The translations under genes were made by a program, and so were the position numbers. A DNA stretch of 63,887 bases, counting the filler, from Basidioascus undulatus (lineage: Eukaryota): NCBI GenBank assembly GCA_000826855.1. It is 4 parts of 4 records of this genome, joined end to end, with 100 filler letters (N's around TTAATTAATTAA, not from the genome) between each part and the next. Parts side by side here need not be neighbours in the genome. Positions count along the whole stretch, not along the records: positions 48,033 to 63,887 come from JTLS01000620.1; 3 more parts are not named here. One strand, given 5' to 3'. The notes under the pieces are model-generated. The model was not told where the DNA came from. It was given only the letters and a program-made list of their open reading frames with translations, and ran no database searches. Numbering within the stretch: the stretch's first letter is position 1; each line of letters opens with the position of its first letter. Shown here one piece after another: positions 24,979 to 63,887 of this stretch.

Positions 24979-24999
24979 CTCCTCCTTCCCGTCATCAAC

Positions 25000-28944: not shown

Positions 28945-29205
28945 ACACGTATGATGGCACTGTCTCAACATTTAGAAGCTGTTTGTTGTTGTACTTGGGA
29001 TGTGATATCCTCGCGCTGGCAATCCCCTTTCGCATGGTGCATCACGGCACACTGCAGCTTGCATCGGTCATGAGATGAGGATTGGCTGCCCCCTCCACAT
29101 ACCATGCTTCCATTGTCCTCAATCAAATACTTCGATGTAGTGTGTTGTTAGAAACTGAGGAGCCTGGTCTGCGTAGAGAGTGCTCACATGCGCAGCAGTT
29201 TCATC

Positions 29206-31850: not shown

Positions 31851-31953
31851 TCGTAAGTTTTAGTTTCGGGTTGAGGGGTTGGGAAGGGCAAGACCGGGAG
31901 AGGAGGGGAGGGGGAGGATGTGTGGGTGCAGGGAAGAGGGGGAAAGGATCAGG

Positions 31954-32053
31954 NNNNNNNNNNNNNNNNNNNNNNNNNNNNNNNNNNNNNNNNNNNNTTA
32001 ATTAATTAANNNNNNNNNNNNNNNNNNNNNNNNNNNNNNNNNNNNNNNNNNNN
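31954..32053. other. Artificial contig-joining linker
   Basis: N44-TTAATTAATTAA-N44. Confidence 0.97.
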
Positions 32054-39367: not shown

Positions 39368-40421
39368 GTTGGCGAGGGTGAAGGAAAGGAGGCACGTAGT
39401 GGTTGGTTAGAAATGAAGGTGCAACTATTCCCTTATATGTCCTCGCGGTGGTCTCTGTCGGCCAATGCCCTGCAGTAGTCTGCAGGTACCCTGGTGCGGG
39501 GAGCCATCCATGTTCAGCGATATGACGACGTTGTCAAGCGTTGTAGCACAGCACGATGGTACCGGCACATTATTCTGCAGTATTAAGATATGAACTAAAT
39601 ATACAACCATGCAGCGATGCTTGTGATATACGTTTCAGTATAAGAGAACCACTGTGGTACCCTTGTGGTGTGGAGCCTCTACGGCGAGTCTCCCCAAGGC
39701 CACGTCTGGTCCCCGACGCCAGGCCGTGCGATCCGTTCAATATACTGGATTCGCGCAAACACCCTCCAGGCAGCTGCAAAGGCAGGCCGGCTCTCTGGTG
39801 TCCTCAAAGACGGAGTAAGGCGCTTCAAACCTGTCGATATATGCGGTATCGATGGTACGTGCCTGTCCTTCATCAGGAGACCTGTCAAACCACGTCCTAC
39901 AGCCGTCACAGTCCTACACTTAACAATGCGCCGGCTATTTCTACCTACTTCCCAGTGATCTTATCCTTTCTTGTCCTTTGGGCTTCAACAAGACACGCCG
40001 GAGGCCTGACGCGCACCTGTGTCACTGCCGCGAAATGTACGCACACATCCTTAGCGAGGCGCCCGCCATCGTTCGTTTGTTCGATATATAGGGTAACCAG
40101 CCCCTCCCATACAACGGAATGTTGAGTCAAGACGTCTTTTTCTGTTTGCATGCAGGTGAGAGAAGAAAAGAAAACAGGAATGGAACGACGTGCGACGATG
40201 CGAGAGACAGGGCGAACTCGAAAGAGAAGGAACGAACAGGCAAGGGTGAACCTCCATCGAAGTCCATACCCCGCCCAACCAACCAACCGACCAACGACCT
40301 AGTTCTCCTCTGCCCCACCCACCGCACCTTCCCACACTCCTTCCAACCAACTCAAAACCCAAGCTATTTTCGCCTAAAACAATCCCAGTCCTTCACCAAT
40401 CCCTGCTTCCCAGCCCAGCCC

Positions 40422-42822: not shown

Positions 42823-45369
42823 GGCTGGCCAATTCTGAGGAGAAGGAGGAGATGGGGCGGAAAGGAAGGGAGCAAACGAGCAAAGGAAGTAGTTCAAGGT
42901 CAAGAGTGCCAGCGAGCTTCCCCCGACGCCGATTTCGGCGCGCTGCGGCCCGCGGATGGCAACGTGTTCACTGCCAATTCGACGCAGCCGCTTTCAAGTT
43001 TCCAGACCTTTCTTGGGCAACTCGACTGCACCGTCTCATATTACCCTGATACTCTATTCGTTTCATCACATTACTTATGTTAAGGATCGGCAAAATAGAC
43101 CAGTACTTCGACCGGCTTGTAAGTGGAGCGAGTTCGCGAACCGGTAACGAGCCTCTTCTTTTCGCCGCCGACTTCCACTCCTGATGAAATGACAAAACGC
43201 ATAGACCGGAGGTATGAATTCCATGCAACCACATTCTGAGTTCAATACAAGCTGTCAGGCACAGCAGGACGTCACGCCAGAGCACTTCGCTTGGAGTCAA
43301 GTTCCGGAGCGAGGTGCGGCCTGCAGGTCATTCGCTTGGGATGCAGAGATGTAGATTATGGATAGATGCAGCCGGAACAAGATTTACTGCAAGAAGTGTT
43401 TTGGTTAACACTTGTTAAGTAGTCGTTAATGGCTGAAGAGTGTACGTCGCTGGAGGCAGTCTGCTTTCACGTCGACAAGGTGCCGTTGACTTTCTCACGA
43501 CCAATGGGCTAGGATTCTCTTCATCTGTCAAACGAATGAAAACTGTTGCTAAATCGCATCTGATTTGGTTAAGCTGCTGACGATTCGCTATCAGCTACGT
43601 GTTGTGTCTGGAAGCTCAACAACCACCCCTCTGAAGACGGTCTCCCTCCGAAATGCTCTCATTCCGAGAGGCAAATCAAACTCAGAGCCTAAAACTTTCA
43701 ATAACGATATTCATCGGCCGTGCGCATACCTAATATCAGCCAAACGTGTTCCCATAGAAGCATGCGCAGAGGACCGGTCGCAGCTGCAAAACTCAGAACG
43801 TCAGTGCGAATCTGTAAACGCTTAGACCTTGCCAAAAAGCAGAGCAGCGCACAGCCCAGAAACTTCTTTCGAGCGGCAGTTCAGCGGCTCCGCCCTCCGC
43901 CGTGATCGTCGCCCACAGCGTGCCGCCGCAACTTCCTTGAGCGTCGCGGCCTTCTCACTCCCACCCTCATCACCGCCACTCACTGACTCGCCATGTCCGA
44001 AGACGACCACAAGCTGTTTTTCAGGGGGGTCCCGGTCAGAATTCACCTTCTTCGACAATTCGGTACTCCCAAGGCGAGCAACGATCCATTCTGTAGCGCG
44101 TCAGGCGACGTCGAGCTGGACTTCTCCGTCGCCAGGAGTACATCCTAGAGCTCTTCGAGGGCTAGTTGCACGGGAGGTCAGACAGCTTCGGGAGGAAGGG
44201 GTCGTTGAGCAAGGACGCCGCTAGTGCTTACAGCCCCGCTAGCAACGGCCTCCCGTCGTCTCCCATAACGGCCGCGAGCTATTGAATAGTTTATTGAAGA
44301 GTTAATATTGAGATACTGAGTTTTGCTCAGATAAACTCTGGGAGATGTGCTTGAAACGCGACTACTTGAGGACTCGCCTGAAGTGTCAGCAGCGGAATGT
44401 GGTTTGAATGCGTGGTTATAAGAGATTGTAGTCGGGCCTTAGTTAACGGTCGGTGTCTTATGGTCGACCAAAAAAGATTTCAGGGTAGTGTTAGACCAAT
44501 CCAACGTGGCAAGCGGTGCAGTCCACAAAGCGCGGTCTGGCTGGGGGCGGTTGAGGCAACCGCCAGTGTGTCGTGAATGCTGGGCCAGCTTATTGATTAC
44601 TACCCCAGGATTCTTCCAGTTATACTATCCTTCAATTGATGGCCTTACGCCGCGCTGACTTGGCCTAAAAGACATTGGAGGAACGGGACCTACCTCCAAA
44701 AGGGTTTCAGGTCCGCCTACAACAGTGCAGTGTCGCCTGGGATTTACGGCCAGTAGCATTCACAGTTTTGTTGGTTGTTACGTAAATATTTGAATGAACA
44801 TTCCTGGAAAGCCCACCACAACGAGCGCTTGGTGCAAATGTGTTATTCGGTCTCGCTGTCAACGTCTGACAGTTGTGAGCCTGACAGCGTGACAGCTACT
44901 GCCCAGCCGGAACAGTCAAACTTTACCGGACACCACCACCATCTTCCCCTGCACACGCTCGCTTCGCACAGCTTCGTCTCGATCATAGTCCTTCGATCGG
45001 ACATTCCACCGCTCATACGGAGCACAGCCGGAACAGGAATCCCCAGCTCGACAGATCAAGCACTGCCCGCGTCCGACCAATCATACTAAACAAACCACCT
45101 TCCAAAGCGTCTGCAGAATGTGCAAGCACGAAAAGTAGTACATGATGCTGAGAACCGACACACATAACCGAAAACATGAGAAAACGAAAAAAGGGAAAAC
45201 GACCGCGAAACCTCCTCCTCCCCTCGTCCCACTACCCTCGTCTACCCATCCACCGCACAGATACACCCAACCTCGGACCTCTCACACCTCACCACACTCC
45301 CACCCGTCCCTGTCCCGCCCCGATCCGGCCCGTCTCGCTCCAGCTCGCGGTGATCACAAGCGTCCCGCC

Positions 45370-46594
45370 TCACAGTGTACCGGGCTCGGCCTTCTCGATC
45401 GACTCGAGGCGGGCGATTTGCCTGTTGCGCGGGAGGGAAGCAGGGGGTCAGCGGCTTGGCGCTTAAGAGAATAACGGTGGAATGGGGGGAAGCAGACGAA
45501 AGGGGTAAGAAGAATCAATCCACTTACCTGTCCCTCAATGCCTCCTGCCACCGCCCCAACTTCGCCCCCTCATGCACGGGGAACCCAAAGATCTTCGGCC
45601 GATACCTCTCGGCCTTGGCTGCAGCCCCGGCCGTACTGCCCTGTGCCATCCCCGCCGGGCCTCCCTGCCCCCCACCCTGGCCGCCGGTGCCGGAGGGGAG
45701 GGGCGCCTTGGCGGGTACCATATGCGGGTAGACCATGAACAGCATCGCGGGGAACGACGTGCCGAAGTACGCTCCGTCGATGGAGCCGTGCCGACTGGAC
45801 TTGGGCGAGTAGATGTCTTCGCAGCGCGGGCAGTAGAGTTTTACCGCCTTGGAGTAGGGGATGTCCGAGAGACCGACGGGCAGGAGCGCTTGGGAGTAGC
45901 AGAGCACGCGGGGGCAACGCCCGAAATCGGCTTTTTTGTACTTGTCCATCTGCGGTGGCCGAGGGATGGAGTCAGTCTTCGTCGTGAGGAAGAGCGAGGG
46001 CGGGGTAGAGGAAGGGATGGGGAGACGAGGAAACGGAAAGATTGGAAGGAGAGAGGGAAAGGGAGGGGTGGGAGGAGGGAGGAGAGAGAGGAGGGGTGGA
46101 ATGCGGAGGAGGGAGGGTGAAGGAGGAGGGGAGGTGCAAGGTGTGGAGAGACGCACCATTTTGGCGAGCCCCCGGGAGGTGGTGATGAACCGGGCGTGGA
46201 TGAGGCCGTACAGGTAGCGCGCAGAGTTCTCGATTGCCTCGCGATGCTCGTCGTCCAGGTCGTCCTCCTCTGCGGTCCAACCCAGCCCATGAGAACAACG
46301 AAAGAAGGAGGAAACGGTGAGAGGGACCCACCAAGCGAGTCCGTGATCAGATCCAGCGCCTGCGAATAGTTTTGCACGTCGTTGTTGAGGCCCGTAAGGT
46401 TGAAGCGGTCGAGGATGTACTCCTCGTCGACTTCGCAGAAGTACTCGTTGCCCTGTCCCATCGCATCCCACCCACACGAGTCTGAGCTGGGAGAAGGGAG
46501 GAGGGAGGGGGGAGGGACGGACCTTGGTGGACAGGAACCACGAGATCCACGAGTTCGAGTACGACTCCTCCGAGCCGGTCGAGAGGTCGTCCAT
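45370..46594 (-). CDS. CKB1: Casein kinase II regulatory beta subunit
   Basis: [32 protein letters not shown]...[10 protein letters not shown]...FGRCPRVLC...[12 protein letters not shown]...[13 protein letters not shown]1 versus CKB2 subtype not tested. Confidence 0.95.
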
Positions 46595-47182
46595 CTGCTT
46601 ATCCGTTCCCGTCCCACCAAACATCAGCTCGCGCTTCGCTGACGCGTGAGTGGGCCTGGGACTCGCTGTGTGAGGGAGAGGAGGTGGCTGAGCTGAGCGG
46701 GGTGGTGGGGGGAGTGCTGAGGCCGCGAGGGGGATCGGATGCGATTCGAGGGGGCGGGAAGGCTCGTGAGGTGGAGAAGGACGGAGGGAAGGACGTGTAG
46801 GAGAAGGCAGGATGGCGGTGAGAAGCAGCCAAGTCGCGAACGCGGACTAGTTGAGGCTTAGATGATTAAGCCGTTCGCAGGAGGTGTTGTCGCTGGGCCT
46901 TCTGGGCCTTCTCACTGGCGGCTTGCTCTGAAAGAGAGACCAGGAGACATCTGAGAGTGTTCCGACGACAAAAACAAAAATGGGGATATTCGGTACAATC
47001 GTACGGCGGTCAGAAGGCAGTAAGAGCAGCTGGCGCAGCGACATAACCGACAAGTGACAGCCGTGACATCTGTCAATCCGCGGTTCATCCGAGGCCCTCT
47101 CGCTCACGCAGCGACGCAGCGTCATAATGCCGCCTCACCCCCTCCCCCTCACTCGATCTCAACGCCTCACACAACACCCCTC

Positions 47183-47890
47183 ATGTCGGCCTCCCCACCT
47201 CCCACGAAAATCCTTCAGCAGCAGCGGGGTGTGCGCACGACCTCAGGGCACCCCGCGCACACCTCCTCCCCTGACGCCGACGCCGAACCCGCCCTAGACG
47301 TGGACATCCTCCGGCAGCGCGCGCGGTGCGGGCTGACGGACGCGCTGGACCAGGTGCGGGTTGGAAGGAAGTGTAGGTTGGAGATGGTTGCTGAGTGGGG
47401 GGGGGATAGGTGTCCGGGCCCAAGACGCTGGTCATTGATCCGGGGCTGGCGGGGCCGCTCGGGTTGGTGACGGAGGTTTCGTTGCTGAAGGTGTGTCTTC
47501 CTCTTCTGTTCTTACTGGAGACGCATCTGAGTTGGCTGGTGAGTCTTTTCGCAGCACCACGGTGTCGATAAGATGTTCTGGCTCGAGCCCGGCCCGTTCA
47601 CCTCCTCCACCCCAGCAATCATCTACCTCTCCCGCCCCTCAATCCGGCACATGAAGCTAATCGCCACGCAAATAGCGGCGCACCTCTCCTCCACCTGTTC
47701 TTCTGCCTCCACCAACCACACGTACACGCTCCTCCTAGCGCCGCGTAGCACGAGCCTGTGCGAGCGGGTCCTAGAGGAGGAGGGCGTGCGGGGGCAGGTG
47801 GACATGCTCGAGTATCCGCTTGAGTTTATACCCCTCGAGGAGGACGTGCTTAGTCTGGAGCTCGAGGGCGTAGCGAGGGAGGTGTTCTTG
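47183..47890 (+). CDS. VPS33: Vps33 (Sec1/Munc18 family), 3' truncated
   Basis: GPKTLVIDPGLAGPLGLVTEVSLLK|HHGVDKMFWLE...LCERVLEEEGV...LEFIPLEEDVLSLEL. Confidence 0.92.
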
Positions 47891-47932
47891 GTGAGTGGGG
47901 AAAGGGAGAGGAGCGAGTGGCGAATGAGATCG

Positions 47933-48032
47933 NNNNNNNNNNNNNNNNNNNNNNNNNNNNNNNNNNNNNNNNNNNNTTAATTAATTAANNNNNNNNNNNN
48001 NNNNNNNNNNNNNNNNNNNNNNNNNNNNNNNN
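47933..48032. other. Artificial contig-joining linker
   Basis: N44-TTAATTAATTAA-N44. Confidence 0.97.
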
Positions 48033-48109
48033 ACTGACGGGCCCTGTCAGGAGTGATGAACGCAGGCTCCTGAACCTCAAGCTCACCACTCTCGAGCAGG
48101 CGCTCAAGA

Positions 48110-49579
48110 AGCAGCTCCTCGGCGAGCCACTCCTCCGCGAGATCTGCGAGAAGACCAAGGAGGTCCTCATGCGCGAGTCGAACGTCGTGCACATAAAGGC
48201 ACCGGTCACTGTCGTCGGCGACATTCACGGGTGAGTAGCCGAAGGTGGGACGCGATGGAGAGCGAGACTGAGATTGGGGATGCTTGGCGGGTGAGAGCCA
48301 GTTCTACGACTTGATAGAGATCTTTCGGATAGGTGCGGCGCGGAGACAGGGCGTTTGAGAGGGAGGGAGGAGAGACTGACGGAGGAAGGGGCGACAAGGC
48401 GGGTACTGTCCCCATACGAACTATCTATTCCTCGGTACGTCCATCTCCCCTGAAATGCATTTCCGCTGAATATGCTCATTGTTGAGGTTTGAGCATGCAG
48501 GCGATTACGTCGATCGAGGACTCTTCAGCATAGAGACCATCTCCCTCCTCACCTGCCTCAAGCTCCGCTATCCCGATCGCGTCCAGCTGATCCGAGGGAA
48601 CCACGAATCAAGAGCTGTCACTCAAGTGCGTTCCGTACTGCCTTTCTTACAATGAAACGCGTTGTTGAGGGCAGCTTGCCGTGGGCACAGACATACGGGT
48701 TCTACACCGAATGCGTACGAAAATACGGCTCAGCGAACGTCTGGACCTACTTTACCGACATGTTCGATTTCTTGACGCTTTCTGTCGTCATTGATGATCG
48801 GATATTCTGTGTACATGGCGGTGCGTGGCTGCCGAGCATGGAACAGGGATAGGCAAGCGCTGAGCTGTGGCGGGGTCGGACAGGTCTTTCGCCTTCAATA
48901 CACACCATCGACCAGATCAAGATTATAGATCGGTTCCGAGGTGAGGATTCTGTCTAACAAGCGTTCTCAGTGAGACATTTGACTGAACGTGTTTGCCGCA
49001 CAGAAATCCCTCACGAAGGTCCGATGGCGGACCTCGTCTGGTCCGATCCGGATCCCGACAAGGAGGAGTTTGCCATTTCGCCTCGGTCCGTTTTCACACA
49101 CCCATCCGCCCCATTTCCCCATGCTCCGGCTCACCCGCCTTGGCTTTCAGAGGAGCGGGGTACACGTTCGGCGCGCAGGTGGTGCGCAAGTTCCTCGAGC
49201 TGAACGGGATGAACCACATCCTGCGCGCGCACCAGCTGTGCATGGAGGGGTACTCGATTCTCTACGACGAGCGCCTCTCGACCGTCTGGTCCGCGCCCAA
49301 CTACTGCTACCGCTGCGGCAACAGCGCGAGCATCCTCGAGGTGGGCCCGGGGGGTGAGAAGCACTTCAACGTGTTTGAGGCCGCGCCGGAGAATGAGAGG
49401 TGCGGCGTTGGTTGGGCGGGGATGAGGAGCGTGGACTTACTGTGGGTGGGTGGTTCAGGGACGGACCAAATCAAGCGGCGCAACAACAAAATAAGGAGGT
49501 GGGGGACCGCACGCGGGTTGCTTCGGTGGGGGACCCGGCGCTCACCGTGCTTCGTTTGCAGGTTACCTACTTCTTGTAA
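48110..49579 (+). CDS. PPG1: PP2A-like Ser/Thr phosphatase Ppg1, 5' truncated
   Basis: [54 protein letters not shown] and a C-terminal YFL. Confidence 0.9.
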
Positions 49580-49783
49580 TATTTTTTGCCTGTATGCTTG
49601 CTTTGTAATTGCTCTACGGACTCTCGCATCATACCCCGTTCACCGAGGCTTTGATTTCAAAGAGCTTGCATCGTCATCGCGTTGCCTGAAGAACTGGGCC
49701 TGAACTGCGAGTCACACCCGCGTGTGAAAGAGATGCTTGATTCGCTATAAGTCTCTGGAAACATTTTCCTTTTCTTGCAGCCG

Positions 49784-49829
49784 GACAGAAGGCCTCAGTC
49801 GAGAGCGACAGAAGGCCTCAGTCGAGAGC
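49784..49829. repeat. 23-bp tandem duplication
   Basis: GACAGAAGGCCTCAGTCGAGAGC occurs twice. Confidence 0.85.
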
Positions 49830-51568
49830 ATATAAGCGGGGCGGACGGGAGAAAGCGGCAGACGGAGCGTTGCGGCGGCGCACCTCGCCGTTTCTTCCGC
49901 TGGGTCACCTTGTCCGTCTGCTTGCCTCTCACTATCACATGCACAAAACCGCAAAGATACTCGAGCTCCCGCCAGTCTTTCACGGCCTGCCTGTGGGCCG
50001 GCTCACCCAGCAGAAGCGAATCATCCTCGAGTCGATCTACCTCCTCCATCCGCACCTCACCCTGCAGGAGCGGAAGGAGTCAGAACTCCCCGTTTCCCCT
50101 ATCTCACCACGCCTGCCTGGTTTTGAGAATGTGTTTATGGCTCTTACTCTACGGTAGCTTCTTCTCAGGTCTCAGCAGCGGTACTGAGGCCGTTACGAAG
50201 TATTGGGCCACTCGCGCTGCTAACCGCGCTTCGGACCCGGCACTCGCGTACTTTAGCGAAGCATCACTGGCCTCAGAGCAGCCCAGCAACGGGTGACTTG
50301 ACCGTTCTCAACTCGCAGATCATTCTGGAAACTCTGCAGACGCTTATGGGCGGGCGTCACCAGCGACAGGAGCGTCGGCGCTGGCGAGGCTGTGGGCCGC
50401 CACCGCGACGCGGAGGGACACGAGAGCAACACGCCAAGCTCGCCGGCGTCACTCGACCAGGCCAGCAATGGATCCTCCTACCCAGAAAACACGCTCAACC
50501 TGGCTGAGTTCCTCATGGGTGAGCGGCGCTCTACAGGGGGGGAGTCGAAGCGCGGTGAGAAGCACTGACACTGCCTAATGGGCTCCCTGTTCGTCAGCTT
50601 TCGACCCAGTCTTGTTTGGTGAGCTGCGGGTATTCTAAAGCTTCTGTTCGTTCCTGACAAGCAGGAGCGCCACCATGCCGCATAGGCTAACCAGGCTGGC
50701 GCAGGACGTCGAGGCGGAGCAGCGACACAGACGGTTTGATGAAAGAACGCCCGATTACATATACTTGTCATATAGATATCAAAGAATGTTCAAATCCTGA
50801 ACAACCGGCAGCTGGCTTCAGCACGCTTTGATGAAAGAGACAGCTGAAGCGTTGAGCGACTCGTGTACTATCGAAACTTCTTGCACTCGAGAGGGCGTGA
50901 ACTTCAAGATATCTTTACTTGGTAGTTTCTCAGGCCGAGGTCAAACACTTGGTGCATATGTCTACAGATTTTGTTGGCGGAAGAAGCCCGGAACATGAAA
51001 CTGTGCTTCAAGAGCCCGAGCTCATTGCGCAATGACGATGCTCCGAGTTCAACTCAGCTGCTGACATCGACTCCTGGCCCGCTCTGCTCACGACCACTAC
51101 CTACCGCATGCTCCTCTCTGGATTCCTAGGGAAAGGGCATTGTTCGGTCTTTTCTTGTCCACTTTACTCTCGGCTTGCGCGAACTGACACAATTTTGCTG
51201 TTCAAATCGCTGCATCTCTCGCCATGCACATCCACCATCTCCCCGCAACAGTTCTTCAGGATATCGGGTCGTACCTTCTGCTGGAACGTCTGAACGAACG
51301 AGAAACGTGGAAGATACACGCCTGATTCCGATTCACTTGCATTTGAGACCCAAGTATACGGAACAGCACAACACTGATTTATATTTTCTATCAGTATCTT
51401 GTCGGGTTTGGACAGAGTGGTAGGGATCGCCCGTAACAATCCATGCGACCCAGCCCTTCTTCAACGCAGCCCGACGTTAACAACGACTCATCCCACCAGT
51501 TCAGCGTAGCGTTCGGATACTTACAGATGGATGGAGTGTGTTCTCTAATACTCTATCCCGCTGACTAC

Positions 51569-51868
51569 TCATCTTTTCATCTTGTAACCCCATCGTTCCT
51601 CGCCCTCCCTACTGTCCCAGTCTCCGAGCGGCGCCTGCTCGCCCCTCCAAGGCGGACGGCCATGCCGACCGCGCCCGGGCTCATACCCCGTTCCTCCCCG
51701 CTGGGCTATGAGCACCACGGGAAGGATGAGGAAGACCGCCAGGATGAGCACGCACGTCGCGTACGCGAGCGTGAGCTTCAGGTCTCGCGCTCGGCGACGC
51801 GGGTCGTCCGGGCGCAGGAACGGAGGGTCGGGTGGAGGGCTCGACGAGTCGCGGGGTAATTGGGGCAT
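51569..51868 (-). CDS. Small single-pass membrane hypothetical protein
   Basis: MPQLPRD...RRRARDLK then LTLAYATCVLILAVFLILPVVLIA (TM), with GC3-rich codons. Confidence 0.5.
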   Translation of the reverse strand: MPQLPRDSSSPPPDPPFLRPDDPRRRARDLKLTLAYATCVLILAVFLILPVVLIAQRGGTGYEPGRGRHGRPPWRGEQAPLGDWDSREGEERWGYKMKR

Positions 51869-53706
51869 TGTGGAACAGGTTATTTTCCTCAAGTGGAGGG
51901 GGAATGAAGAAAGTAGACAGCCGTACTGGCCCAAGTAATTGGATTCGAGCTGAAAAGGATGACCTGTACTCTTTGCAACGGCGGGTCGAACGACCTTTTC
52001 TCTTCAATGCAGGCTCGGGGACCTATGTAATGCATCTTTTGTTTGACTTGGCCATACGATTGGCAGAGCAGTGCAGGCAGAGTGGTATCGCGAACGAGGA
52101 TCAGCCACGAAGTTCAATGAAAATGACCGGGTTACGTAGCCTGAAAAACGCTTGCCTAACAGTTTGTATACACGCTTTTAGACACCTTAAGGCCCTGTAC
52201 TTATGCTTTCTAGTCACAATGCGCATCCGAATCTCTCTGATGAACAGTACAGGTCATCGAGAAAGGTGTCTAGCAAAGAGGCACCGCCAACTCGGTCTTC
52301 AAAAACTCCGTCGCACGGTATTCAGGCTTTGAGTGAAAGAGCCAAGCTCATGTGGCATAAGTATTTGGCATAAAAGGCGAGGACACAACAAGCCCGCCCA
52401 GCACCGCGATCTTGTGCCAACAGGCTCATCCCCAGCCTTCCTCGTCTCCCTCGTGGGTGGTTCCCCAATGTTCTGACTTGGTAAACCTTGGACTTACGAG
52501 AGCCTGGCGTCTCTTTTCGTTCGGAGTCGTTCGGGCATCCTAATAGAGGATGCTTTGGGATGCTCAATGCAAAATAGCCGAAGATTTCTGACTTGCACGC
52601 ATCGGCATCCGACCTCGTCATTGGAGGTTACCGTGCCGCCGCACCTTTGACAGGGCGGCGGCGGAGCAGTCACGTCTCTTCCCTTTTTCGCTTGTGAGCG
52701 GCCTCGCGTCATAATTCAGGAGTTGAAGCTTCAGTGGCATATTATCTTCCGCCTCATGTCTCTCAACTTCTTTCGGAAGTATAGGTGCATTTTAGCAGGC
52801 GAGAAAAACAGTGGTGGCCTTTGCGTGGAAACAAGCGTAGTGTTGAACCTACTCAACAGCATCTGGTTTATATTTCGTAGCTTTTGAACTACGATCAACT
52901 TGGGGCCCGAAGTTCTCCCGGGAAGTACAATCCGATGTCCCGAGAGCACCAAAGCCGCTGGCGGAACGATGAAAAATGTGCCTGACCCTTATCTAATAGT
53001 GGCCTGATTGTCGTTGCCACGAGGGTCGGAGACTTGAAGACACGCGACGTCCACTCCTCGTCTCCTTCCCCCGTGTTGCCGAAACGACAGTCGGAACAAG
53101 AAGTAAGCGAGCCGGAAACTTAGTAACCCGGGTCTACTGAGTTTGTCATGTGGCAGTGTGCATGTGGCAGTGCGCAAAACGTTGAATAGACATGTTCCCA
53201 TCTCACAGCGTCGGAAGTGATGTCCAAACATGAAAGGGCTGTCTGGGTGTAAGTTTGTTACACGAGCGGACATGAGCGGAAATTGCATGCACATGCCACC
53301 CCAAATCCCCGGGGGTATGATCATGAATACCACCGAATTGTCGTAAGATCTATTAAACGAGCAATCTCGGGCGTTTTGCGGCATGGCCCGAGCTCTCGGA
53401 GGTTGACAGGGCTCGGACGGAGAGGGTGGAGTGTAACGTTTGTTTTGACGCGAAGTCGTTTGGATTCCGGGGGATACACCGCATGGCCTGTCTTCCCTCC
53501 TCCGCTCCTTCCTCCGCTTCTCCCCATCGCATCGGCGCCTCGCCGCGATCCGGTCTCCGTCAAGATGATGTACCTCAAATGTCATTTTCTCCGGCTCTGC
53601 TTTCGCCACCACCATCTACCTTTTAGTCTACGCCGCCCGGATCACACTTTTCCACACCGCAGCCCAACAAGCCCAAGAACTTTCCATTCCACTCACACCA
53701 CCTCCA

Positions 53707-54872
53707 ATGTCACGACGCAACAAGGCGCATGTTTCGGTCGCGTGCGTGCCATGCAAGATGTCGCACATTGCCTGTGATCGTGAGCATAGTTTCTATCCCC
53801 TGCTCAGTAAACGCACGCTAAGAGTGTGACCTCTTAGACCGACGGCCGTGTAGGCAGTGCGAGCGACAAGGGAAGGAAGCAGCCTGCGTCGATGCTGTGG
53901 TGCGTCCTCTTCTTTATGTTACTCCTCATGAGTCGAATTCTTACTGAACGAAATAAAATCCATCTCCAGCACGCCAAACGAGGTCGTCCTAAAGGCACCG
54001 TCAAGTCGCAGAAGGACTCGGAGACGAGCAGCAGTCGCTCGGACAGTCCCGAGATAGTGCCCTCCGCCCCGGACCAGCGCGCCTTTCTCCGCCGCCGCAC
54101 CACCCAGCCAATAATCCGACGAACGTCGAGCACCACCGCTCGGCACCGCACGGCGAGCTCCCCGCCGCCACGCACTCGTCCTCCTCACAGCACCCACTCC
54201 TACACACCCTCGCCAACTTCGACCGCTTTCGGCGTTCCCGACACGGATCTTCTCGTCGATTCTGCTCTTACTCAGATCTTCGCCATACTCAGCGGCCCCG
54301 CACACATCCTCTTTCACGCTCCCTCGGACCTCAGCTCCCTCTTCGACCTTGTACCGCACGCGCACCACCCGCGCCTTGCCGCAGCCCAGGCGCGCCTCGC
54401 GTGGGGCGAGCACGCCCCGACCGAGCAGATGCTCATGCGCGACCGGCTCGGGCGCACGATGGAGTACGAGGTGTCCCTGAGCCAGGAGCGGGACGGTCTG
54501 GTCCGGGCGCGGATTGGGGCGGTGAAGGAGGGGACGTGGGCGGGCTGGAGGAAGGTGAGTGCGCTGCAGGTGCAGAAGGACTGGGCTGGGAGGCACACGG
54601 GTGAAAACACCCCCCTATTCTCTCGCACCCCGCTCTACCACACTTCTCCCTACCATCCAACCATCGAGCACGGACGCGCATCGAACCCACCGGCGTCGGT
54701 GCCTTCGCATGTCGAGCAGCCCCGAGCCGGCACTTCCCATTTTCTTCGCTTCCTTCCTTCTCCTCCTTGGTCCGAATACGATGAGGATTCTCAACCTACC
54801 TGTGCTTCCGGGACATTCTCCACTTCTAATCTGATCACCGCACCCAAGTCTCTCGCTGCACTTCTATGTTGA
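53707..54872 (+). CDS. Zn(II)2Cys6 transcription factor (Rds2/Ert1/AcuK-AcuM-like cluster spacing)
   Basis: Spliced N-terminus ACVPCKMSHIACD|HRRPCRQCERQGKEAACVDAV|HAKRGRPK. The zinc cluster is not visible in the ORF track because of introns. Confidence 0.82.
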
Positions 54873-54897
54873 AATGTTGTATTGCCTACCTCCTTCG

Positions 54898-54937
54898 TAG
54901 CTTATTGCTTGTGCTTATAGCTTATTGCTTGTGCTTA
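54898..54937. repeat. 20-bp tandem duplication in the 3' UTR region
   Basis: TAGCTTATTGCTTGTGCTTA occurs twice. Confidence 0.85.
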
Positions 54938-55308
54938 ATCCGAATTTGACGACGACGAAAGTTTCCAATGTAATGAGTCTTGACATTGTTAATTTACGAT
55001 GAACTAAACGTCTACTCTTTGCAGTCCTTCGCCGCGGTGCACCGGGCCATGCAGTGTGTGTTACCTTTCGAGCGCGCCCGCTTCCCTTGATCTAAGTCAT
55101 GGTCGCCGGACTTGCTTTTCGTTTGGCAAGTCTTGGAAGAAAGGCAGCACTGGATAGAACTTGTGGTGACAGCTTGCCCCTAGTGGTTCCTCACTCAGGT
55201 TACAAACTACGGGCTGCGCAACAGCAACAATTTGCTGCAGCTAATACCTACAAACAATCGCATAATTTCACGGTGTTACAGTCGCAAGAGGCTGCCTAAT
55301 GATCCCTA

Positions 55309-56302
55309 TCAAACGCGGTGTGACTTACACCACTGCGGGTCCAAGCACGCCCCGGAGTAAGAAAGCGCACGGCGGAAAGCGAAGCAAGTGACGGACCTTC
55401 CGATGTTTTGCCCAATCATGCCACTGATCCTATCGTGAGCACTACGTCGCGCCCTTTCAGGCGTGGCACGCCTGCGTACACGGCTTTCCGCAAACTTCAC
55501 ACCACGACCCGCCAGTCTCGAAAAGCACCTCGACCTTGTCGAGGATTTGCTTGATGGCAAGATCTCGCTGACTAGGGGGCAAGTTCACAATGGGTATTGC
55601 CGTCGAGTTGAGAAGAGCAAGACGGGACGCGCGAGGTTTACCGATCCGGAAGGTGCGCAGAAGAAGACGCACGAGGTCGGACCGAGGCGGGGGCGTGAAG
55701 TGCCGCGTTAGGACGAGACGGAGGCGGGGGCGGGAAGTGCCGCATTAGGACGAACTGCACCCAGGTAACGGGTAAATCGGAAAGGATGCGATATGGGACG
55801 TTCGAACACAGCCAGCTGTACGTGCAGTGCGCTTTGAAGAGCGCGGGGTCGTCGTCGTTCGGCTTCATCGGACGGAGGGTGTAGTGGTGAAGGTCTCGAG
55901 CAATGAAGCCGTGAACCTCGCCGCTCAGGTCGATCGAGAAATGTATACCCGCTGGCAGATAATCGAATCGACCACCAAAGTGGCAGTACACGGGTGGGGT
56001 CCTGCCAGCGACGGCCTGCATCTGATTGTTGACCTGGTCCTCAACATCCTCGCAACAGGCCTTGATAAGCGGATCGAGGTCGCCCATAATGCTTGATTCG
56101 AGATGAGCAGAACCATGAACTCCTGTGCGGCAGGGACGGGGGTCCTCGAGGTAGGGAAGGCAGTACTGAGGTCGAGCGTGAACGCTCCGAGAAACTGGCG
56201 GATGACGAGCACCCGTCCGAGGTAGCGGATGATGCCGATTTCCTCGTCTTCGTGAGACTTACGAATGAAGATCTTTTTGAACGGGCTGATAGAATCGATC
56301 AT
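55309..56302 (-). pseudogene. MYND-finger pseudogene, paralog of 14536-15559
   Basis: WCEVCGKPCTQACHA*KGAT*CSR*DQWHDWAKHRK|WCKSHRV*, with three in-frame stops and frameshifts. Confidence 0.75.
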
Positions 56303-56982
56303 ACCCGCGCCGCAGCGGACAAGGCCGAAAGCGGAGGGAAGCGAAATGTCGATGTGTTTGACCAGCTCGCCCGAGCATCCGCACTAGTGACGATGCGAGG
56401 ATCATCAGTCCGGACAGTCTCGAGGATGAAGGATATCGATGGCGTAATAGGCATGACTGAGGAGGACGCCGCCTCGAACGCGAAGTCGTTGAAAGTTAGC
56501 CTGGGGGTGGAGGAAGAAGGTGGGCAAGGAGTCGGGCGGGAGCTCGAACTTCGCAGTTTTGTGCACTCCGCTGGTAGGTCGCCAAATAGACAATTGCTCC
56601 CAATCCGGCTTTGGCCGCGTAGCAGACGAGACTTCATTGGGAAGTACAAAACACATGTACGCGACTCTATACAACGAAGGGGAGCAACCTACCCTCTTCC
56701 CCGTCGGCGCCGCAAAACGTTCAGTGTGCGTCTCCGAATCCCCAAATGGGCGAGCTGAGCCATCCAGCCGCCACGCGCAGCCCCATTCACGCCCTTGGCC
56801 CAGGACAGTGAGACGCCAAAGCTCAGTGGGCTTATCCGATTCTGGAGAAAGTCCACATCGCAGAGGTCGCGCAGAAGTGCGCAGGTCTGCGAGAAGGAGA
56901 CACAGGTGGATAGCGTGGGCAGCTCATTGTGGACGAGGACGAGAACTTCGGCGGGAAGCATGAGAAGCGACAACGAGGTCAT
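56303..56982 (-). pseudogene. F-box protein, frameshifted
   Basis: MTSLSLLMLPAEVLVLVHNELPTLSTCVSFSQTCALLRDLC is an F-box pattern, and the continuation switches frames. Confidence 0.6.
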
Positions 56983-57856
56983 GTTGAGAGATGTTTGGTA
57001 TGCGGAAGGGTTACTCGAATGAAGTTGACGCAGGAGGTTGAAGGAAGCGATGGTGATGGTAGCTCGTCAAGCCCGAGCTTCCGCTGGCAGCAACCGCGCG
57101 CCAGCCTCGTCATGGGGCTTCTACCGAAGAAAGCCTGAAGCCACTTTGAGCACTGTAATGGAATGTAAATTCACAAGGAAATACTAGGCTCCAAAAGGGC
57201 TCATGGTAAGGCTCCTAGATGAACAGCACCGTTGCTAGTGTCCCTCCTTATGCGAGCACAGGGACTTTTTGCGAGACCCATTCTTGCCGCCGCTGGCCTC
57301 GTCCGTTTCAAAAGCTGCCGAAAACCCTTCAGGAAATCAACCGTCTGTCCCTTTGTAGCTGTGAACATCGTCTTTGTCCAGACAGCGTTGGAAAGATAGG
57401 TTTTATCTGCAGTATGCGCACAGCTTCGGACATGCACGACACGCACCGCCTTCAAAACTCGGCATCCAGCAGAGCTCAACCAATCTTCGTCCACCTGAGG
57501 TGAAAGGAACTCGAAGAGTTTAATTGGTCCACAACCCATTTCGCATTCCCAAGTATCTAGCAAAGTCAACGGGCGCCTTCGGCTGGCTGTATCATCGGCA
57601 GTGCATGCGGTAGCAGGCACGAGCGGATGAGAGATACAGCTGGGAGCCGGGTAGGACCTGGAAAAGATAGATAGAGAAACTTCGGTTTCGTCAAGGCCGC
57701 TTTGTGAGTGTCAGACATAACAGTTCTGCGACAGCCAAGTAAGCAGCACGTCTCAAGGTCAGCCCGGCACATACCGAGCTCAAGCTGCCCATTCTGTCCA
57801 GCCGCACCGTCAGTCTCAGTTCTCACAGCCTTCGCAACCCCGCTCAACTCACAGTA

Positions 57857-59595
57857 TCACATCTCCCCCACCTCCCGCAGGTTCGCCTCGAAGCTCTCCA
57901 TCAGACTGTCGTCTCTCCAAATCTCAAAGTCCTCCGCCTCGCCCGCCCCCGCGTCCCTAGCGGGGCGGAGAAGCTCCCCGGCCGGCTCCTCGAACTCGAC
58001 CTCGAAGTACTCCGACTGCGCCGCGCCGTCGCTGCTGCTTCCCTCGACGGTAGAGCCGGTCATAGAAGATTGGGCGGAGGGGCCGTGGTGCCAGAAAGTC
58101 GGGGGGAGGACGCTGTGCAGGGGAGGGGGGGCATTCTCGCTTCCGGGGATGATGGGCAGAGATAGTGTGGGGAGAGGGAAGAGCGCGGATGGGGCGTAAG
58201 GGGAGGAAGACGCGTGCGAGGACAAGGCTGCGGCCGCTGCGGCGGCGGAGGCGAACAGCTTAGCTTGGTAGCGGTCGAGGGCGACGTGAGCGGAGGGTGG
58301 CTGCTCGGAGTGAGACTGCTGGGACAAGAATTGGGAATTTAAGTCCGAGAGGAAGGCAGGCAGAGTGGGCAAAGGGCGGGGAAAGAATGCGACCGTAGAC
58401 GCACAGGGATCTCGGCATGTGGAATTTCCTCAACACGGCCTCCGCTGGAACTTCTCAACGATCCGCGCATGTCCTCCACCATATCGCTCTCCGCATCGGC
58501 AGCGGGAGCGCCATACGGCCTCGGCGGCAGGTGCGAGACTGCAAGCGCATGGGGCTCGTAGGCGAGCGGCTGCGTTAGGAGAGTCGGCGTGTTCGCAGGG
58601 CGGTACGGCGTAGGATGGAAGAGGGAGGGCGAGTAGAGTGGTGCGGGGTGGGGAACGTGCCGCGGGGCGTTAGGGCGAGAAGGAGCAGGAGAGCTAGACC
58701 GCTGTGCGGGGGCATGCGCGTGGTAGTACGACGGTCCGGGCGAGGCGAACGGGACTATTGCTGAAGGCTGCGTGTGGTCCGAGGGAGGCTGTACGAGATG
58801 GTAGTGGTAGTCGGGCTCGTTGTCGGGGAGCAGAGGCTGGAGATGGTGCGGGGGCAGGTCGAGCGAAGACGCTTGAGCGGGAAGCGCATAGGCGAAAGCG
58901 GGCGACTGCGCCTGCGGTGGTGGGTACGAGGCGGACAGGGGCGCCGACGGGTAGAGCGAGGGCTCGGGGCCCGGCGTGGCTGACTGTCGGAGTGCATTCG
59001 ACGGGGAGAGGGTGGATGTTGCGGTTGCGAGCCAGTACGGGATGGGGGAAGGCGAGCGGCGAGGGTGCGGAACCTGCAATGATTTGGAAGATTTCAGCTT
59101 CGACAGACAACATCCAACGGGACTGAAACTCATGACCTTCATATCCCGTCCGACCACCCTAGAGCTCCTCATCGACTTCGAGTCCTCCTCGACCACGTCC
59201 TCGGCGACCCGCGCCGTCCTCCCCATGCCCCTCGCCTCGCTCGACAGCCTCGCCCGCCCGCTCCCGCGCGTCTTCCCGAAGGCCTTGTCGAACTTCGCGT
59301 TCAGACCGGTGGCGGAGGAAATAGAGCTGCCTCGTGCGCGCTTGTTGAGCTCACGCAGGTCGTCGCCGACGGACGAGCGCTTGGTCGGCGTCGAGCTCGT
59401 CGGTGGAGAGGGAAGGCAGTGTGGTTGCCGGCGCACGGACCTGCACAGGGAAATCAGAGGTTTTCGGATATCCAAAAGACTGAGAGAGCTATACCCGGGG
59501 TATCGGGTGAAGCGACCTGCCGGCTTCGGATCCCTAGGCGAGGGCGACGAAGAGCGGTGCGAAGACGAAAGCGAAGGAGGAACGGCGTGAGGCAT
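57857..59595 (-). CDS. Pro/Ser-rich low-complexity hypothetical protein
   Basis: Long ORFs 58339-59745 and 57857-58372 can be joined by a GTGCGT...CCCAG intron. No domain recognised. Confidence 0.6.
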
Positions 59596-60754
59596 TGTGG
59601 CTGCGTAGGTGAATGTGGATCGAAATTGTATCTCCCTCCAGTCTGGTACGCAGGCGACAAAGTGGGACGGAGGGCAGCCAGTGGGGATGATGGTGGACGG
59701 AGGGCAAGAGCCGTGAGGCAACCAGAGCAGAGATGTAGCCATCAAGATGCGTGTCGACAGGACTTCGCAAGCGATGAGGCGGTTTGTTGCAGACTGGTTG
59801 CTTCCTCGCCCAGCCCAGGAAGACGAGTACGTCTCGCTTCCAGCTCAAATGACGGTCTTGTAACGGAATTCAAGCAAATCAACTGTGGAAGCTCACTGGC
59901 AATCGTATTGCAGGCAAGCGGACTCGCTTTGCTGTGTGGACCCCAGGCATTCCGTCCGTCACTAATAGAGGCACACAGAGAAGATTCTTATCAGGAAATT
60001 TGAGAGTTCATAACGATCTTATGCCTTTTTTGTGTCGGACATTTGTAGGGGCAGCAGCCTCGGCAACGTCTTGGGAGCTTATTGCATTGTTTCTTTCAGC
60101 ATTCTACATGATACACGGTCCTTCTGTCTACGAAGGTGAACCAGACTGGGATATATTCACTCTTTATGAGCTTGAAGCTCGCACAAAGTGATGCACGCGG
60201 GGACTCAGTAAGTCGACATGCGGTTGTGCACCTTGCCGATCATTTTTACAGCGTGCTGAGCTTTGAGTGAGCACCGGAACTTCTAAAAGTACCCCAATTA
60301 AGGTAGAGAGGACGATAAAAGACTATTTCCTCCCTGATTGTGACGGGACTGGTTAGAGATCAGCGCGACTGCGTGGCGGGGGTGTAATGCGTAGGCGTGG
60401 TCCACGTGATTTCTTCTGCAGCGGCTGACAGTCAAACTCCGCGACCCAATCCCCGCTCTCCGTGCCACTCGGGCTTCCAGCCGTCGTGTTAGACGGACGG
60501 ATTCCGGTGATAGTCCCTTAAAAACACGCTACATATATATATGAATGCATGCACCTTGAAGTTCAGGACGGAGCGGGCAAATCTTCAAGATCATCCCTTA
60601 CCTGACCTGTCGAAGACGCAGCGGCAGCGGTTACACCAAGGCCGGCCCTTCCGGTGCAGAGCGAAGGGACGCTCCTAACGTCTCTTGTCCCCATCTGTAT
60701 CCCTTCAGATCACCTGCGTCCACGTTCTCCATACAGCCACCCTCGTCGTTCGCC

Positions 60755-62413
60755 ATGCCACATTCACAGTTACCCTTCCAGCCGCTCTCTTCCGGTCTTC
60801 TCTGGGGTTTCTACAGCGCCCACATCACGGGCATGGTCCTCCTCACCCTTCTTTTCCTCACCACCGTTCTCTATCTCAACCGTCACGCAACCGTTCCCAC
60901 ATTCTTTCTCGTCCTCGCCCTCAACTCTTTCTTCGCGAGCATGCTCGCCTGGACCGGAAACGCTCGGGTGGCAGAGCCTTCGTTCGAGGTCTGCCTCACC
61001 TGCGCCCTTGGCTTCCTGTCCGGCACAGTAGCACAAGGCGCGGCAGCCTTCGCTCTGATCCTCAAGGTTCGTCTCCCCTTGGAGGGCGGTTAGGTATTAA
61101 GGTATTACGAGTTTTCAGACTTCTCATTACCGGCAGATTTGGAGCGTCATCGTCGACTACCGCTTTACGGACTCGCCGATCTGGACGCCATTCTTGGTCG
61201 CGACGCCTTGGCTTGCAGCGGTCCCTACATTCATATACGCTCTCGTCGTACGCATTTTTACCCCAGTGGAATCTGAAGTGCGGCTTATTAGCAACGGGCA
61301 GTGGGGTCTGCGAAATCGATCGCGCGTCGTCCGGACGGATACTTATTGCATGTTCCTGAACCTCGATATGTGCGTCCCCTTGCTCATTTACCCAATCAAT
61401 ATCTGACAGCGGTGGATAAGTCATTACGGAGCGGTCTTCGCTGCCGACGGCTTTCTGTGGGCATACTGCGCCTTCGCATTCCTGCTGTCCCGCTGATACA
61501 TCTCCACAGCATCCTCACACTGCTCTTTGCCCTGTGGTCGGTGATTGTTTATCAACTCAAGCACCGACATGTGAAGATGCGGCGGCGGGTGGACCTCCCA
61601 CTATTTGCTCGGGTACGTCAATCTCATCAATTTCCGGTGAATTCTTTGGGTCTCAACAGCCTCAACCCTCGCAGGTCCTTGTGTTTTGCCTGTCCGTCTT
61701 CCCCACCTAGAATCTCTGTAACGAGCTGATCACCCTTCCCCATCCAGCTTAGCCTTGATGACAGTCATTATCACTTTTAACAACTAGTAGTTTGCTCCTC
61801 TGAAGCGGGCGGTGCTCCCGAGGCTAACTTGCGACCAAATTTCAACAGTCGTGTCGGACGCGTCCAGCCAGGATCCAACATTGCGATCGCGAGCATCTCG
61901 GTCGCTGTATTCTTTATATTCGGTGAGATTTTTTGGTTCAAAAAGTCATATGTAGGTACTGAGTACAGTTGTCTCTCTAACAGGTTCACAAAGAGTTTGT
62001 TTCCACCTTAACTCTCGTTCGGAGACGCCTCAGCTTGACACCCATTCCCAATCTCGCAGGACGTCCTCCGGACATGGCGACTGATCAAGCCTGGCCACAC
62101 CACTCCTTCAACAACGGTCGCCTCATTCTCCACCAAAAGCAGATCGACTCCTTTCCACCCCTCGAATCCTCTGCGCTCGTATGAAGGGCGCCCCGTCGAT
62201 GGGATTCGAGTCTCACGCGTCGTGCTCGTTGACGAGGAGCTGCATTGTCCTACTTACGTGGGCGGTGGGGGTTTGAAGGCCTATCACACTTGGGATGATG
62301 ATTGGGGGTCGGAACACTTTGAAGAGATAGGAGACGGAGGGGCGCCTATGTACGAGCTGAAGTCAGTCGCTGCGAAGAAGAGTGTTGAGACGGAGGTGGG
62401 AAGAGCTGTATGA
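60755..62413 (+). CDS. Multi-pass (probably 7TM) GPCR-like membrane protein
   Basis: Successive TM segments, loop Cys residues (EPSFEVC and DTYC), and a last helix VAVFFIFG|SQR|DVLRTW assembled with an 11-nt exon at 61984-61994. Confidence 0.7.
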
Positions 62414-62884
62414 AGAGGAACGCGTTGTATGTAGACCTACAGTTCCACACTTACTTTTCGAGGAGCCTCTTGCACAATGTGTCAGAGGCATGGAAAGGTC
62501 ACCTCGACCTCTGAAAACGTGGGTGCAGCTAGGCGGGCAGTGAGGAACAGTCAGCCTTCCCCGTCTTCACCAACTTATGTCCAATTGCAGAAATGTGCAA
62601 CGTGGGAAGTCCCTTGTCCTGTATTATAATTAATCATCTGCATGACTGTAACGAGGAGACGCCGGCGTTCAGGTACTTTCAGTCAAGAGCACCTGCGGCC
62701 AGCACGGTTCCCCACAGAGAGTGACCATAGTATCCCACTGACTATTTCATGCACTTATGGATTAATGTCTTCCTACGGTACTTCGCTTTGGCATTTACCG
62801 TAACGCCTCCCCGGTCTATACGTTGGAGATAAATCTTAAGTTGAGGGTAAGCACATTAACCTCTGTTAACAAGTGGCAGTCGAG

Positions 62885-62957
62885 ATCAGGGGGTTGCAGG
62901 TTCGATCCTTGCGTCGGTCAAGGCTGGCTGGCTCAATGGTAGAGTATCTGACTACGA
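62885..62957 (+). tRNA. Circularly permuted tRNA-Arg(ACG) candidate (3' half 62885-62920, 5' half 62922-62957)
   Basis: 3' half A TCAGG GGGTT GCAGG TTCGATC CTTGC GTCGGTC A precedes 5' half GGCTGGC TG GCTC AATGGTA GAGT A TCTGA CT ACG A. All four stems pair when the halves are swapped. Confidence 0.8.
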
Positions 62958-62969
62958 CTTATTTAATAC

Positions 62970-62974
62970 TTTTT
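62970..62974 (+). terminator. Putative RNA Pol III oligo-T terminator
   Basis: TTTTT begins 13 nt after the anticodon-side end of the tRNA 5' half. Confidence 0.55.
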
Positions 62975-63389
62975 GCTTCTGCACCTATTGAAGCTGGTCC
63001 TGCCGTGCTGGCTGAGTTCGAGCCATCAGACTTATTTGCTCTCAGCAGCGAAAGTCTGCAGTCTTGTAACGTGGCGTCTCGATATGTATGCCGGTCACCC
63101 AAATCCTTTCATACCCAAGATCCATGAAGGAGAAGGTACGACAGACCCTGAATGCAATCAGGGTTTCCCAATAGAATACTTAAGGGTTGCGTGCTCTCCT
63201 GCCGGTTTACTTGGGGCCGGTTCGCTGTCGAAGGACAATGCACTGGTCGATGGGGAACGTCGAGCTGTCAGGTAGCTTCAGACTTTATGCCATTGATCAG
63301 CATTGGTAATCAGGGGAGAAGGCCAGTTAGAGGAAAGATTAGGTGCAATCTGATGAACAGCTCTGAAGAGTCGGTCGCTCATGTTTTAT

Positions 63390-63887
63390 GTTTTTGCGTT
63401 CAAGACCACCTTCATGTCTGCCCCTATCCTCTGCCACTTCGACCCCAACCTCGAAACCATCATCGAATCTGATGCTTCTGACTTTGCCATGTCTGCCATA
63501 CTCTCTAAAGTCCACTACAACAGTCTCCTCCACATGGTCACTTTCATGTCACACAAGATGACACCCTGCTGAACGCAACTGAAAGATCCATACAAGGAAC
63601 TCCTTGCCATCATCTCAGCTGTCAAGCTCTGACGCCAGTACCTCGAGAGCCTCCCAAAGCTATTCCCATCCTCACTGACCACAAGAACCTTGAATACCTT
63701 CAGACAGCCCTCATCCTCTCCTGCAAACAAGCTCGCTGTCTGAGGAGATCAATCATCACAAGTACTCCATAGACTACCACCCCAGGATCAAGAACGGCAT
63801 TCCGCTTTCCTCGAGTGGAACGACCGGGCCCTCCAGGCTCAGTTCTATTCCGGACTCAAGCCGAATGTCAAGGATGCCCTTGCGCTC
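63390..63887 (+). mobile_element. Degraded Ty3/gypsy LTR retrotransposon fragments (RNase H, then gag)
   Basis: APILCHFDP..TIIESDASDFAMSAILS...KELLAII...TDHKNLEY with stops and frameshifts, then [24 protein letters not shown] (gag). Confidence 0.88.

Follow-up and report, generated by a model that had tools for sequence, protein, structure and literature searches.

A tRNA-Arg(ACG) gene stands back to front in the DNA analysed here: its 3' half lies upstream of its 5' half on the same strand, a single A separates the two, and exchanging them yields a complete cloverleaf. The locus is real and tRNA-derived, beyond chance. From its sequence and from contigs built out of reads, we consider it probable, though well short of certain, that the locus belongs to a multi-copy family of working tRNA-Arg(ACG) genes, nuclear and circularly permuted, in a basidiomycete. 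The copy at hand appears slightly diverged, with two private C>T changes that keep their pairs as G-U.

The window, by which we mean the whole stretch of DNA analysed, comprises 63,887 bases in four chunks of about 15.9 kb (1-15931, 16032-31953, 32054-47932 and 48033-63887). Each of the spacers between them (15932-16031, 31954-32053 and 47933-48032) consists of 44 N, TTAATTAATTAA and 44 N, and neighbouring chunks may be non-adjacent in the genome. The permuted locus sits inside the last chunk, at least 854 nt from any spacer or end. For comparison with reads, contigs were built from read words in three runs: X1 and X2 are genome read sets that differ in depth and contig number and are possible sources of the window, and X3 is not on record as RNA, nor is any other run that contains the stretch. 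On re-reading the sequence, we found the coordinates, the single A, the order of the halves and the T5 run all as given in the preliminary description of this DNA. The features, in window coordinates, are these.

62829..62834, + strand: ATAAAT, a weak candidate upstream promoter element, read in one copy
62870..62884, + strand: leader CAAGTGGCAGTCGAG, common to other family copies; five contigs in X1 and three in X2 match the window from 62870
62885..62920, + strand: tRNA 3' half, positions 38-73, 36 nt, from direct reading, ARAGORN and a pair check
62899-62908, + strand: B box GGTTCGATCC, within the 3' half
62921, + strand: intervening sequence, a single A between A73 and G1, present also in a 56-nt contig of about ten-fold depth
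62922..62957, + strand: tRNA 5' half, positions 1-37, 36 nt, from direct reading, ARAGORN and a pair check
62929-62939, + strand: A box TGGCTCAATGG, within the 5' half
62958..62969, + strand: trailer CTTATTTAATAC, its first 7 nt common to 3 other contigs
62970..62974, + strand: T5 run, a candidate RNA polymerase III terminator, from the sequence; the chance of such a run is 0.7% per 20-nt stretch

The 3' half holds A38, the 3' strand of the anticodon stem (TCAGG), the variable loop GGGTT and the T arm (GCAGG/TTCGATC/CTTGC), and it ends with the acceptor 3' strand GTCGGTC and the discriminator A73; CCA is not encoded. The 5' half starts with the acceptor 5' strand GGCTGGC, followed by TG, by the D arm (GCTC/AATGGTA/GAGT) and by A26 and TCTGA, and closes with the loop CT-ACG-A, the anticodon-loop part of which reads C32 U33 A34 C35 G36 A37. 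With one half ending at A37 and the other starting at A38, the break falls exactly at the 37/38 intron site, as had been claimed. By this arrangement the leader and the trailer would be the 3' and 5' parts, respectively, of a 37/38 'intron' that has been opened.

Scoring the re-ordered sequence had been suggested from the outset, and the 72-nt sequence obtained when the halves are swapped by script is called by ARAGORN as tRNA-Arg(acg); in circular mode the program finds the same tRNA-Arg gene in the native 73 nt. All 12 of the 12 universal nucleotides examined are present (U8, A14, G18, G19, A21, U33, G53, U54, U55, C56, A58 and C61), and all 21 of the 21 stem pairs form, 15 as Watson-Crick and 6 as G-U pairs. 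The call and the pair check thus agree with the mismatch-free cloverleaf with six G-U pairs that was first described. The usual tertiary partners (R15-Y48, A26-G44, G46, Y32 and R37) are in place. Standard scanners had been expected to overlook such a gene, and they do: ARAGORN in linear mode reports no tRNA in the native 500 nt or in the whole window, whether introns are allowed or not, and the Rfam tRNA model at its gathering score misses the permuted locus, its sole match in the window being a cut-off tRNA-Leu(AAG). Another Rfam tRNA match, at 62922-63014 (17.1 bits, E 3.3), was rejected; its 'T arm' (63016-63024) is unpaired.

As a control for chance, the whole 63.9-kb window was scanned as circularised 110-nt pieces, with the reversed sequence in parallel. 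A tRNA call spanning the junction was made in 18 pieces, 14 of which lie at the permuted locus. The 4 remaining pieces represent 2 places, near 1549 and 46441, with poor folds, mismatches and no T-loop consensus. These calls were rejected because of the poor folds and because their rate is the same as in the reversed sequence, which yielded 2 pieces, both at 1 place. Nowhere else in the window is there a T arm or D arm of the permuted tRNA, and the locus is therefore not half of an ordinary gene.

The tRNA-Leu(AAG) gene (15861-15931, + strand; Rfam tRNA, 32 bits) is the only other tRNA in the window's other 63 kb and is cut off by the end of the first chunk. It is ordinary and intron-less, and permutation or introns are therefore not universal among the tRNA genes of this fungus. 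An 8-mer, AAATCTTA, occurs upstream of both the tRNA-Leu gene (15848-15855) and the permuted gene (62831-62838), at different distances; with two cases it is given no weight.

By its protein-coding sequence, the host reads as a basidiomycete nearest to the Tremellomycetes, though without a close match to any named species among the proteins compared, in line with its first description as a fungus. For an SMC4 hinge exon in the third chunk, the best full-length named matches are Tremellomycetes (Cutaneotrichosporon, Kwoniella, Tremellales and Cryptococcus) at 64-69% identity, with other basidiomycetes at about 56-63%; the highest-scoring row bears the name of a moth but has only 57% query coverage at 55% identity. 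A PPG1-type phosphatase exon in the same chunk as the locus has mainly basidiomycete matches at 83-86%, with plant and insect rows at about 50%. The gene just upstream of the locus has short introns of 51-135 bases, 5 of 7 with GT..AG ends, which fits a fungus. This protein-coding gene (about 60755-62467, + strand) ends about 400 nt upstream of the permuted unit, and its first listed exon is membrane-protein-like with no Pfam match. It is a contig of X3 that skips these seven stretches, and X3 therefore looks like cDNA. At the locus itself, an X3 contig of 93 nt over 62878-62942 stems from another copy, and other X3 contigs continue past the T runs; we do not interpret the X3 contigs here, since they show no starts, ends or strand.

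A permuted order could in principle be an artefact of assembly, in a window pasted together from four chunks and among short-read contigs that break at the permuted repeat. The single-copy flanking contigs, with depths of 16.6 in X1 and 47 in X2, stop at 62899 and restart at 62935. Yet in both X1 and X2, which differ in depth and contig number, the junction is spanned by contigs assembled directly from read words; the preliminary description had called for raw reads to confirm the locus. A 56-nt contig over 62891-62946, the same in X1 and X2, starts at position 44 and takes in the T arm and acceptor 3' strand, A73 with the spacer A, and then the acceptor 5' strand and D arm as far as position 26, with only 2 differences from the window. 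Two more diverged contigs also cross, with 6 differences over 62890-62946 and 9 over 62882-62964, both crossings sitting at the ends of long contigs. Because X1 and X2 are flagged as possible sources of the window, this is a test of the assembler and not of a second isolate. Misassembly is nearly excluded by the read-derived junction contigs, and the locus lies within one chunk, clear of every spacer and end; we regard an artefactual order as very improbable.

The depth of the 56-nt contig, 175.4 in X1 and 472.7 in X2, is about ten times that of single-copy sequence in both sets, a ratio that comes from single-contig depth and gives only a rough copy number. Summed depths of about 2000-5600 at the locus were not used as a copy number, since they add up short overlapping contigs. 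At least 5 contigs carry other upstream flanks, those that match the window from 62870 differing before it, and downstream the contigs part from the window sequence at 62957, which is exactly position 37, or at 62959, 62960 or 62964. The unit shared between copies therefore spans about 62870 to 62957-62964 and consists of the permuted tRNA with the 15-nt leader and 0-7 nt of trailer. Varied flanks around a tRNA with a short leader and trailer are what tRNA genes of one family with a conserved intron look like, and the best reading of the contigs is that the permuted layout is multi-copy, in what appears to be a dispersed family of roughly ten or more. The preliminary description had allowed that this might turn out to be a unique, decayed locus; the junction contig of about ten-fold depth and the varied flanks speak otherwise.

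The copies also seem to bring their own terminators. In the window the T5 run begins 13 bases after position 37, against a background of 465 T5-containing stretches among the 63510 20-nt stretches of the window (0.7%). Among 5 other groups of downstream flanks, compared through multi-contig consensus strings with 62-70% agreement, T5 occurs within 8 nt of position 37 in 3 and T4 in 1, with none in 1.

These flanks bear on another account, in which the junction is a 1-nt spacer between two ordinary, head-to-tail, intron-containing tRNA-Arg genes, the window copy being a remnant and the working genes ordinary. Tandem duplication is the standard origin model of permuted genes in the available part of PMC3978253. 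Sequences weakly resembling the trailer together with the end of the 5' half are found at 62729-62756 and 62996-63037 (+ strand), with an exact GACTTATTT at 63029-63037. As vestiges of a tandem duplication these look-alikes were rejected, their scores falling within those of shuffles (5% and 14% as good) and of random genomic pieces. The second T arm or D arm is absent from the window, none of the 3 runs contains a contig with a joint that 'goes back' or a contig that fits the stretch twice, and T4-T5 directly after position 37 in several copies would stop RNA polymerase III inside the 'intron'. We judge such a pair of ordinary genes improbable.

The excess of G-U pairs had been put down tentatively to C>T decay, and this holds for some of the pairs only. 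At 62909 and 62925 the window has T where every covering contig has C; in X1 either base is covered by 10 contigs, in X2 the first by 10 and the second by 11. The two bases are positions 62 and 4, where C gives G52-C62 and C4-G69. Thus, two of the six G-U pairs (52-62 and 4-69) reflect private C>T changes of the window copy, both of which turn G-C into G-U and break no pair. Three others (2-71, 6-67 and 10-25) lie inside the contig of about ten-fold depth and are therefore family-wide. The sixth, 27-43, involves 62947 and 62890, one base outside each end of that contig, which is where it would be expected if the copies vary at both partners; the variants themselves are not visible in the contigs. 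The left end of the contig (62891) is equally compatible with branching just past A73, as expected of ordinary genes sharing the 3' half, and this counts against the preferred reading. The window's own two T's are in no read-derived contig, an absence that decides nothing since contigs drop rare variants. The original choice between a functional gene and a recently permuted pseudogene is in this way narrowed and only partly settled: the locus is not a unique decayed one.

A family of copies may nevertheless be a family of non-decoding repeats. A tRNA-derived dispersed repeat could comprise permuted pseudogenes, a SINE-like RNA polymerase III retro-copy (derived from a tRNA transcript, circular or tandem) or a Y-RNA-like, tRNA-shaped non-coding RNA, the unprocessed transcript then being the product. 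The locus is multi-copy with diverged flanks, its box order is wrong for TFIIIC, and degenerate retroelement pieces lie 400 nt downstream. The Rfam YrlA model, moreover, matches 62866-62972 (+ strand) with 29.8 bits (E 6e-4). That score is far under the family's gathering threshold of 69, and columns of the outer stem are marked as mismatched, so the locus does not join YrlA (RF02553). As regards retroposition, the trailers differ from copy to copy and carry separate T runs, in place of one shared tail. At the window copy, the only one fully readable, there is neither a flanking target-site duplication nor an A-rich tail, and the combination of shared tail and target-site duplications expected of a tRNA-derived SINE or retro-pseudogene is not seen. 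The DNA between the unit and the retroelement pieces is single-copy. A mimic or pseudogene, finally, need not keep an intact anticodon loop, a split exactly at 37/38 and every universal nucleotide. A decoding tRNA is favoured by the intact loop and the universal nucleotides, as well as by changes that preserve pairing and by terminators specific to each copy, and we hold the non-decoding forms, all taken together, to be unlikely, if considerably less so than a remnant of two ordinary genes. As to the neighbourhood itself, the piece about 400 nt downstream is a frame-broken RNase H segment of an LTR retrotransposon (63357-63569, + strand; Pfam RT_RNaseH_2, E 2.7e-13), and the last 170 or so bases of the window, 63716-63887, are a high-depth repeat in the read sets.

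On the preferred reading of a working permuted family, the signals for transcription deserve attention. Permuted tRNA genes, a textbook curiosity of one red alga, certain green algae, nucleomorphs and a crenarchaeon, are tied to endonucleases that recognise a bulge-helix-bulge and to TFIIIC-independent, TATA-driven transcription. In the permuted gene the B box (62899-62908) comes ahead of the A box (62929-62939), an order unsuited to TFIIIC. The search for an upstream promoter yielded nothing convincing: within 105 nt upstream the only TATA-like word is ATAAAT, 56 nt before position 38, and a scan for bacterial-type promoters and terminators gave nothing relevant.

Folding of the precursor is likewise accommodating at best. 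In the predicted fold, the leader pairs with C35-A37 and with the trailer in 12 pairs with two bulges, beyond the anticodon stem. An alternative pairing joins C32 to the G three bases before the 3' site, and pairing of this type near the 3' site is as in eukaryotic pre-tRNAs. The leader pairing has an energy of -6.4 kcal/mol, a value also reached by shuffled leaders in 9% of cases and by random genomic 14-mers in 5%, and we therefore count the precursor structure as permissive and not as evidence. The whole precursor folds no better than it does with shuffled flanks, and in the best fold the 5' cut site lies within a helix, so that a clean bulge-helix-bulge is lacking. Left unconstrained, the minimum-energy fold differs from the cloverleaf (-27.4 kcal/mol, versus -24.8 kcal/mol with the cloverleaf constrained), and closing the acceptor stem with only 2 nt imposes strain.

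A maturation pathway for such a gene can be proposed. RNA polymerase III would transcribe the leader, the 3' half, the A, the 5' half and the trailer and stop at the T run. The body of the transcript would fold as a tRNA, its acceptor stem closed by A73 and the A, while pairing of leader and trailer would lengthen the anticodon stem. The tRNA-splicing endonuclease would then cut at its canonical sites, after A37 and before A38, and a heal-and-seal ligase of the fungal Trl1 type would join A37 to A38 to give a 73-nt circle. RNase P would open the circle before G1, the extra 3' A would be trimmed, CCA would be added and A34 would be converted to inosine. Were RNase P to act first, a nicked two-piece tRNA would result in place of the circle.

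Two intron-containing genes in tandem were probably the source of the permuted layout. The available part of PMC4090602 reports an intron in 132 of 143 tRNA genes of Cryptococcus neoformans, and with most tRNA genes intron-bearing in this related fungus an origin by tandem duplication is easy to imagine. The locus would thus fit a simple origin, in which duplication takes place where nearly all tRNA genes carry a 37/38 intron.

A working fungal family, if true, would mean that ordinary opisthokont splicing and end-processing enzymes and RNA polymerase III handle permuted genes, in a genetically tractable kind of organism for studies of circular intermediates, and that standard tRNA finders silently miss a whole isoacceptor family in fungal genomes. 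A bolder proposition, to which the sequence lends something less than an even chance, is that every tRNA-Arg(ACG) gene of this basidiomycete may be circularly permuted. In that event, the reading of CGU, CGC and CGA would depend on cutting, circularising and re-opening the transcripts of about ten back-to-front genes, all by enzymes usual in opisthokonts, namely a Sen endonuclease of the 'ruler' type, the ligase Trl1, and an RNase P whose substrate would be a 73-nt circle containing the 1-nt spacer. The permuted tRNA would then be the first outside algae and archaea, and RNA polymerase III would prove able to transcribe genes in which the B box precedes the A box. The YrlA model, for its part, is a useful existing route to genes permuted at 37/38.

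Our findings add to a broader picture of tRNA gene permutation. Soma et al. 2007 and Maruyama et al. 2010 reportedly described circular permutation in tRNA genes of Cyanidioschyzon merolae, of green algae and of the nucleomorphs of chlorarachniophytes. The available part of PMC3978253 lists Cyanidioschyzon, prasinophyte green algae, a nucleomorph and Thermofilum pendens, with intervening sequences of 1-74 bp (1 nt in Thermofilum pendens), breaks mostly at 37/38 in the green algae, TATA-like sequences upstream and T stretches downstream as typical features, and maturation through a circle that is then opened by RNase P and tRNase Z. Auxenochlorella and chlorarachniophyte nucleomorphs are later additions in what is available of PMC12633428, and in the accessible text of a 2026 review (PMC13578239) the hosts are still algae only. 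Among titles and the beginnings of abstracts on fungi, Tremellomycetes and opisthokonts, outside subscription journals, we found no permuted tRNA gene of a fungus, which accords with the earlier statement that none was known. In metagenomes, a search with the exact T-loop-to-D-arm pattern gave 0 matches, and a relaxed Arg(ACG) pattern gave 5 loci, all of them ordinary tRNA-Val/tRNA-Arg arrays in normal order and none a relative. In these marine-type loci (L001-L005) ordinary tRNA genes are densely packed, with 6-8 of them per 0.9-1.3 kb and some only 2-7 nt apart, and the arrays include tRNA-Val directly before tRNA-Arg(ACG); they are unrelated to the permuted gene.

With the genes of Cyanidioschyzon, green algae and nucleomorphs, as far as the available sources describe them, the fungal locus shares a 3' half upstream on one strand, a T stretch after the 5' half, the 37/38 break that is commonest in green algae, a normal re-ordered cloverleaf and an unencoded CCA. 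It differs in its opisthokont host, in forming a family of about ten where those organisms have one gene per anticodon, and in having a 1-nt intervening sequence without a clear bulge-helix-bulge or an upstream TATA. The maturation of algal permuted tRNAs has been shown by RT-PCR, whereas that of the fungal tRNA is a proposal. The tRNA-Tyr(GUA) gene of Thermofilum pendens (Chan, Cozen & Lowe 2011, as cited in the accessible part of PMC3978253) has the same one-nucleotide intervening sequence; unlike the fungal locus, it is archaeal and single-copy, with its junction in the T loop, and its acceptor loop is larger because CCA is encoded.

Two further systems help to place the locus. The intron-rich tRNA genes of Tremellomycetes, as the available part of PMC4090602 presents those of Cryptococcus neoformans with their 37/38 introns, share its cut sites and splicing enzymes, and the fungal leader and trailer behave like the two ends of such an intron; the Tremellomycete exons, however, stand in normal order. 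The bacterial Y RNA-like YrlA has the same outline in its primary transcript, namely a T arm, a closed acceptor and a D arm on a stem formed by the two ends, an outline that a precursor permuted at 37/38 necessarily shares. YrlA is bacterial and lacks the anticodon stem and loop, whereas the fungal locus is eukaryotic and has the full stem and loop. In comparison with these systems, the fungal locus is a known kind of gene in a kingdom with none described.
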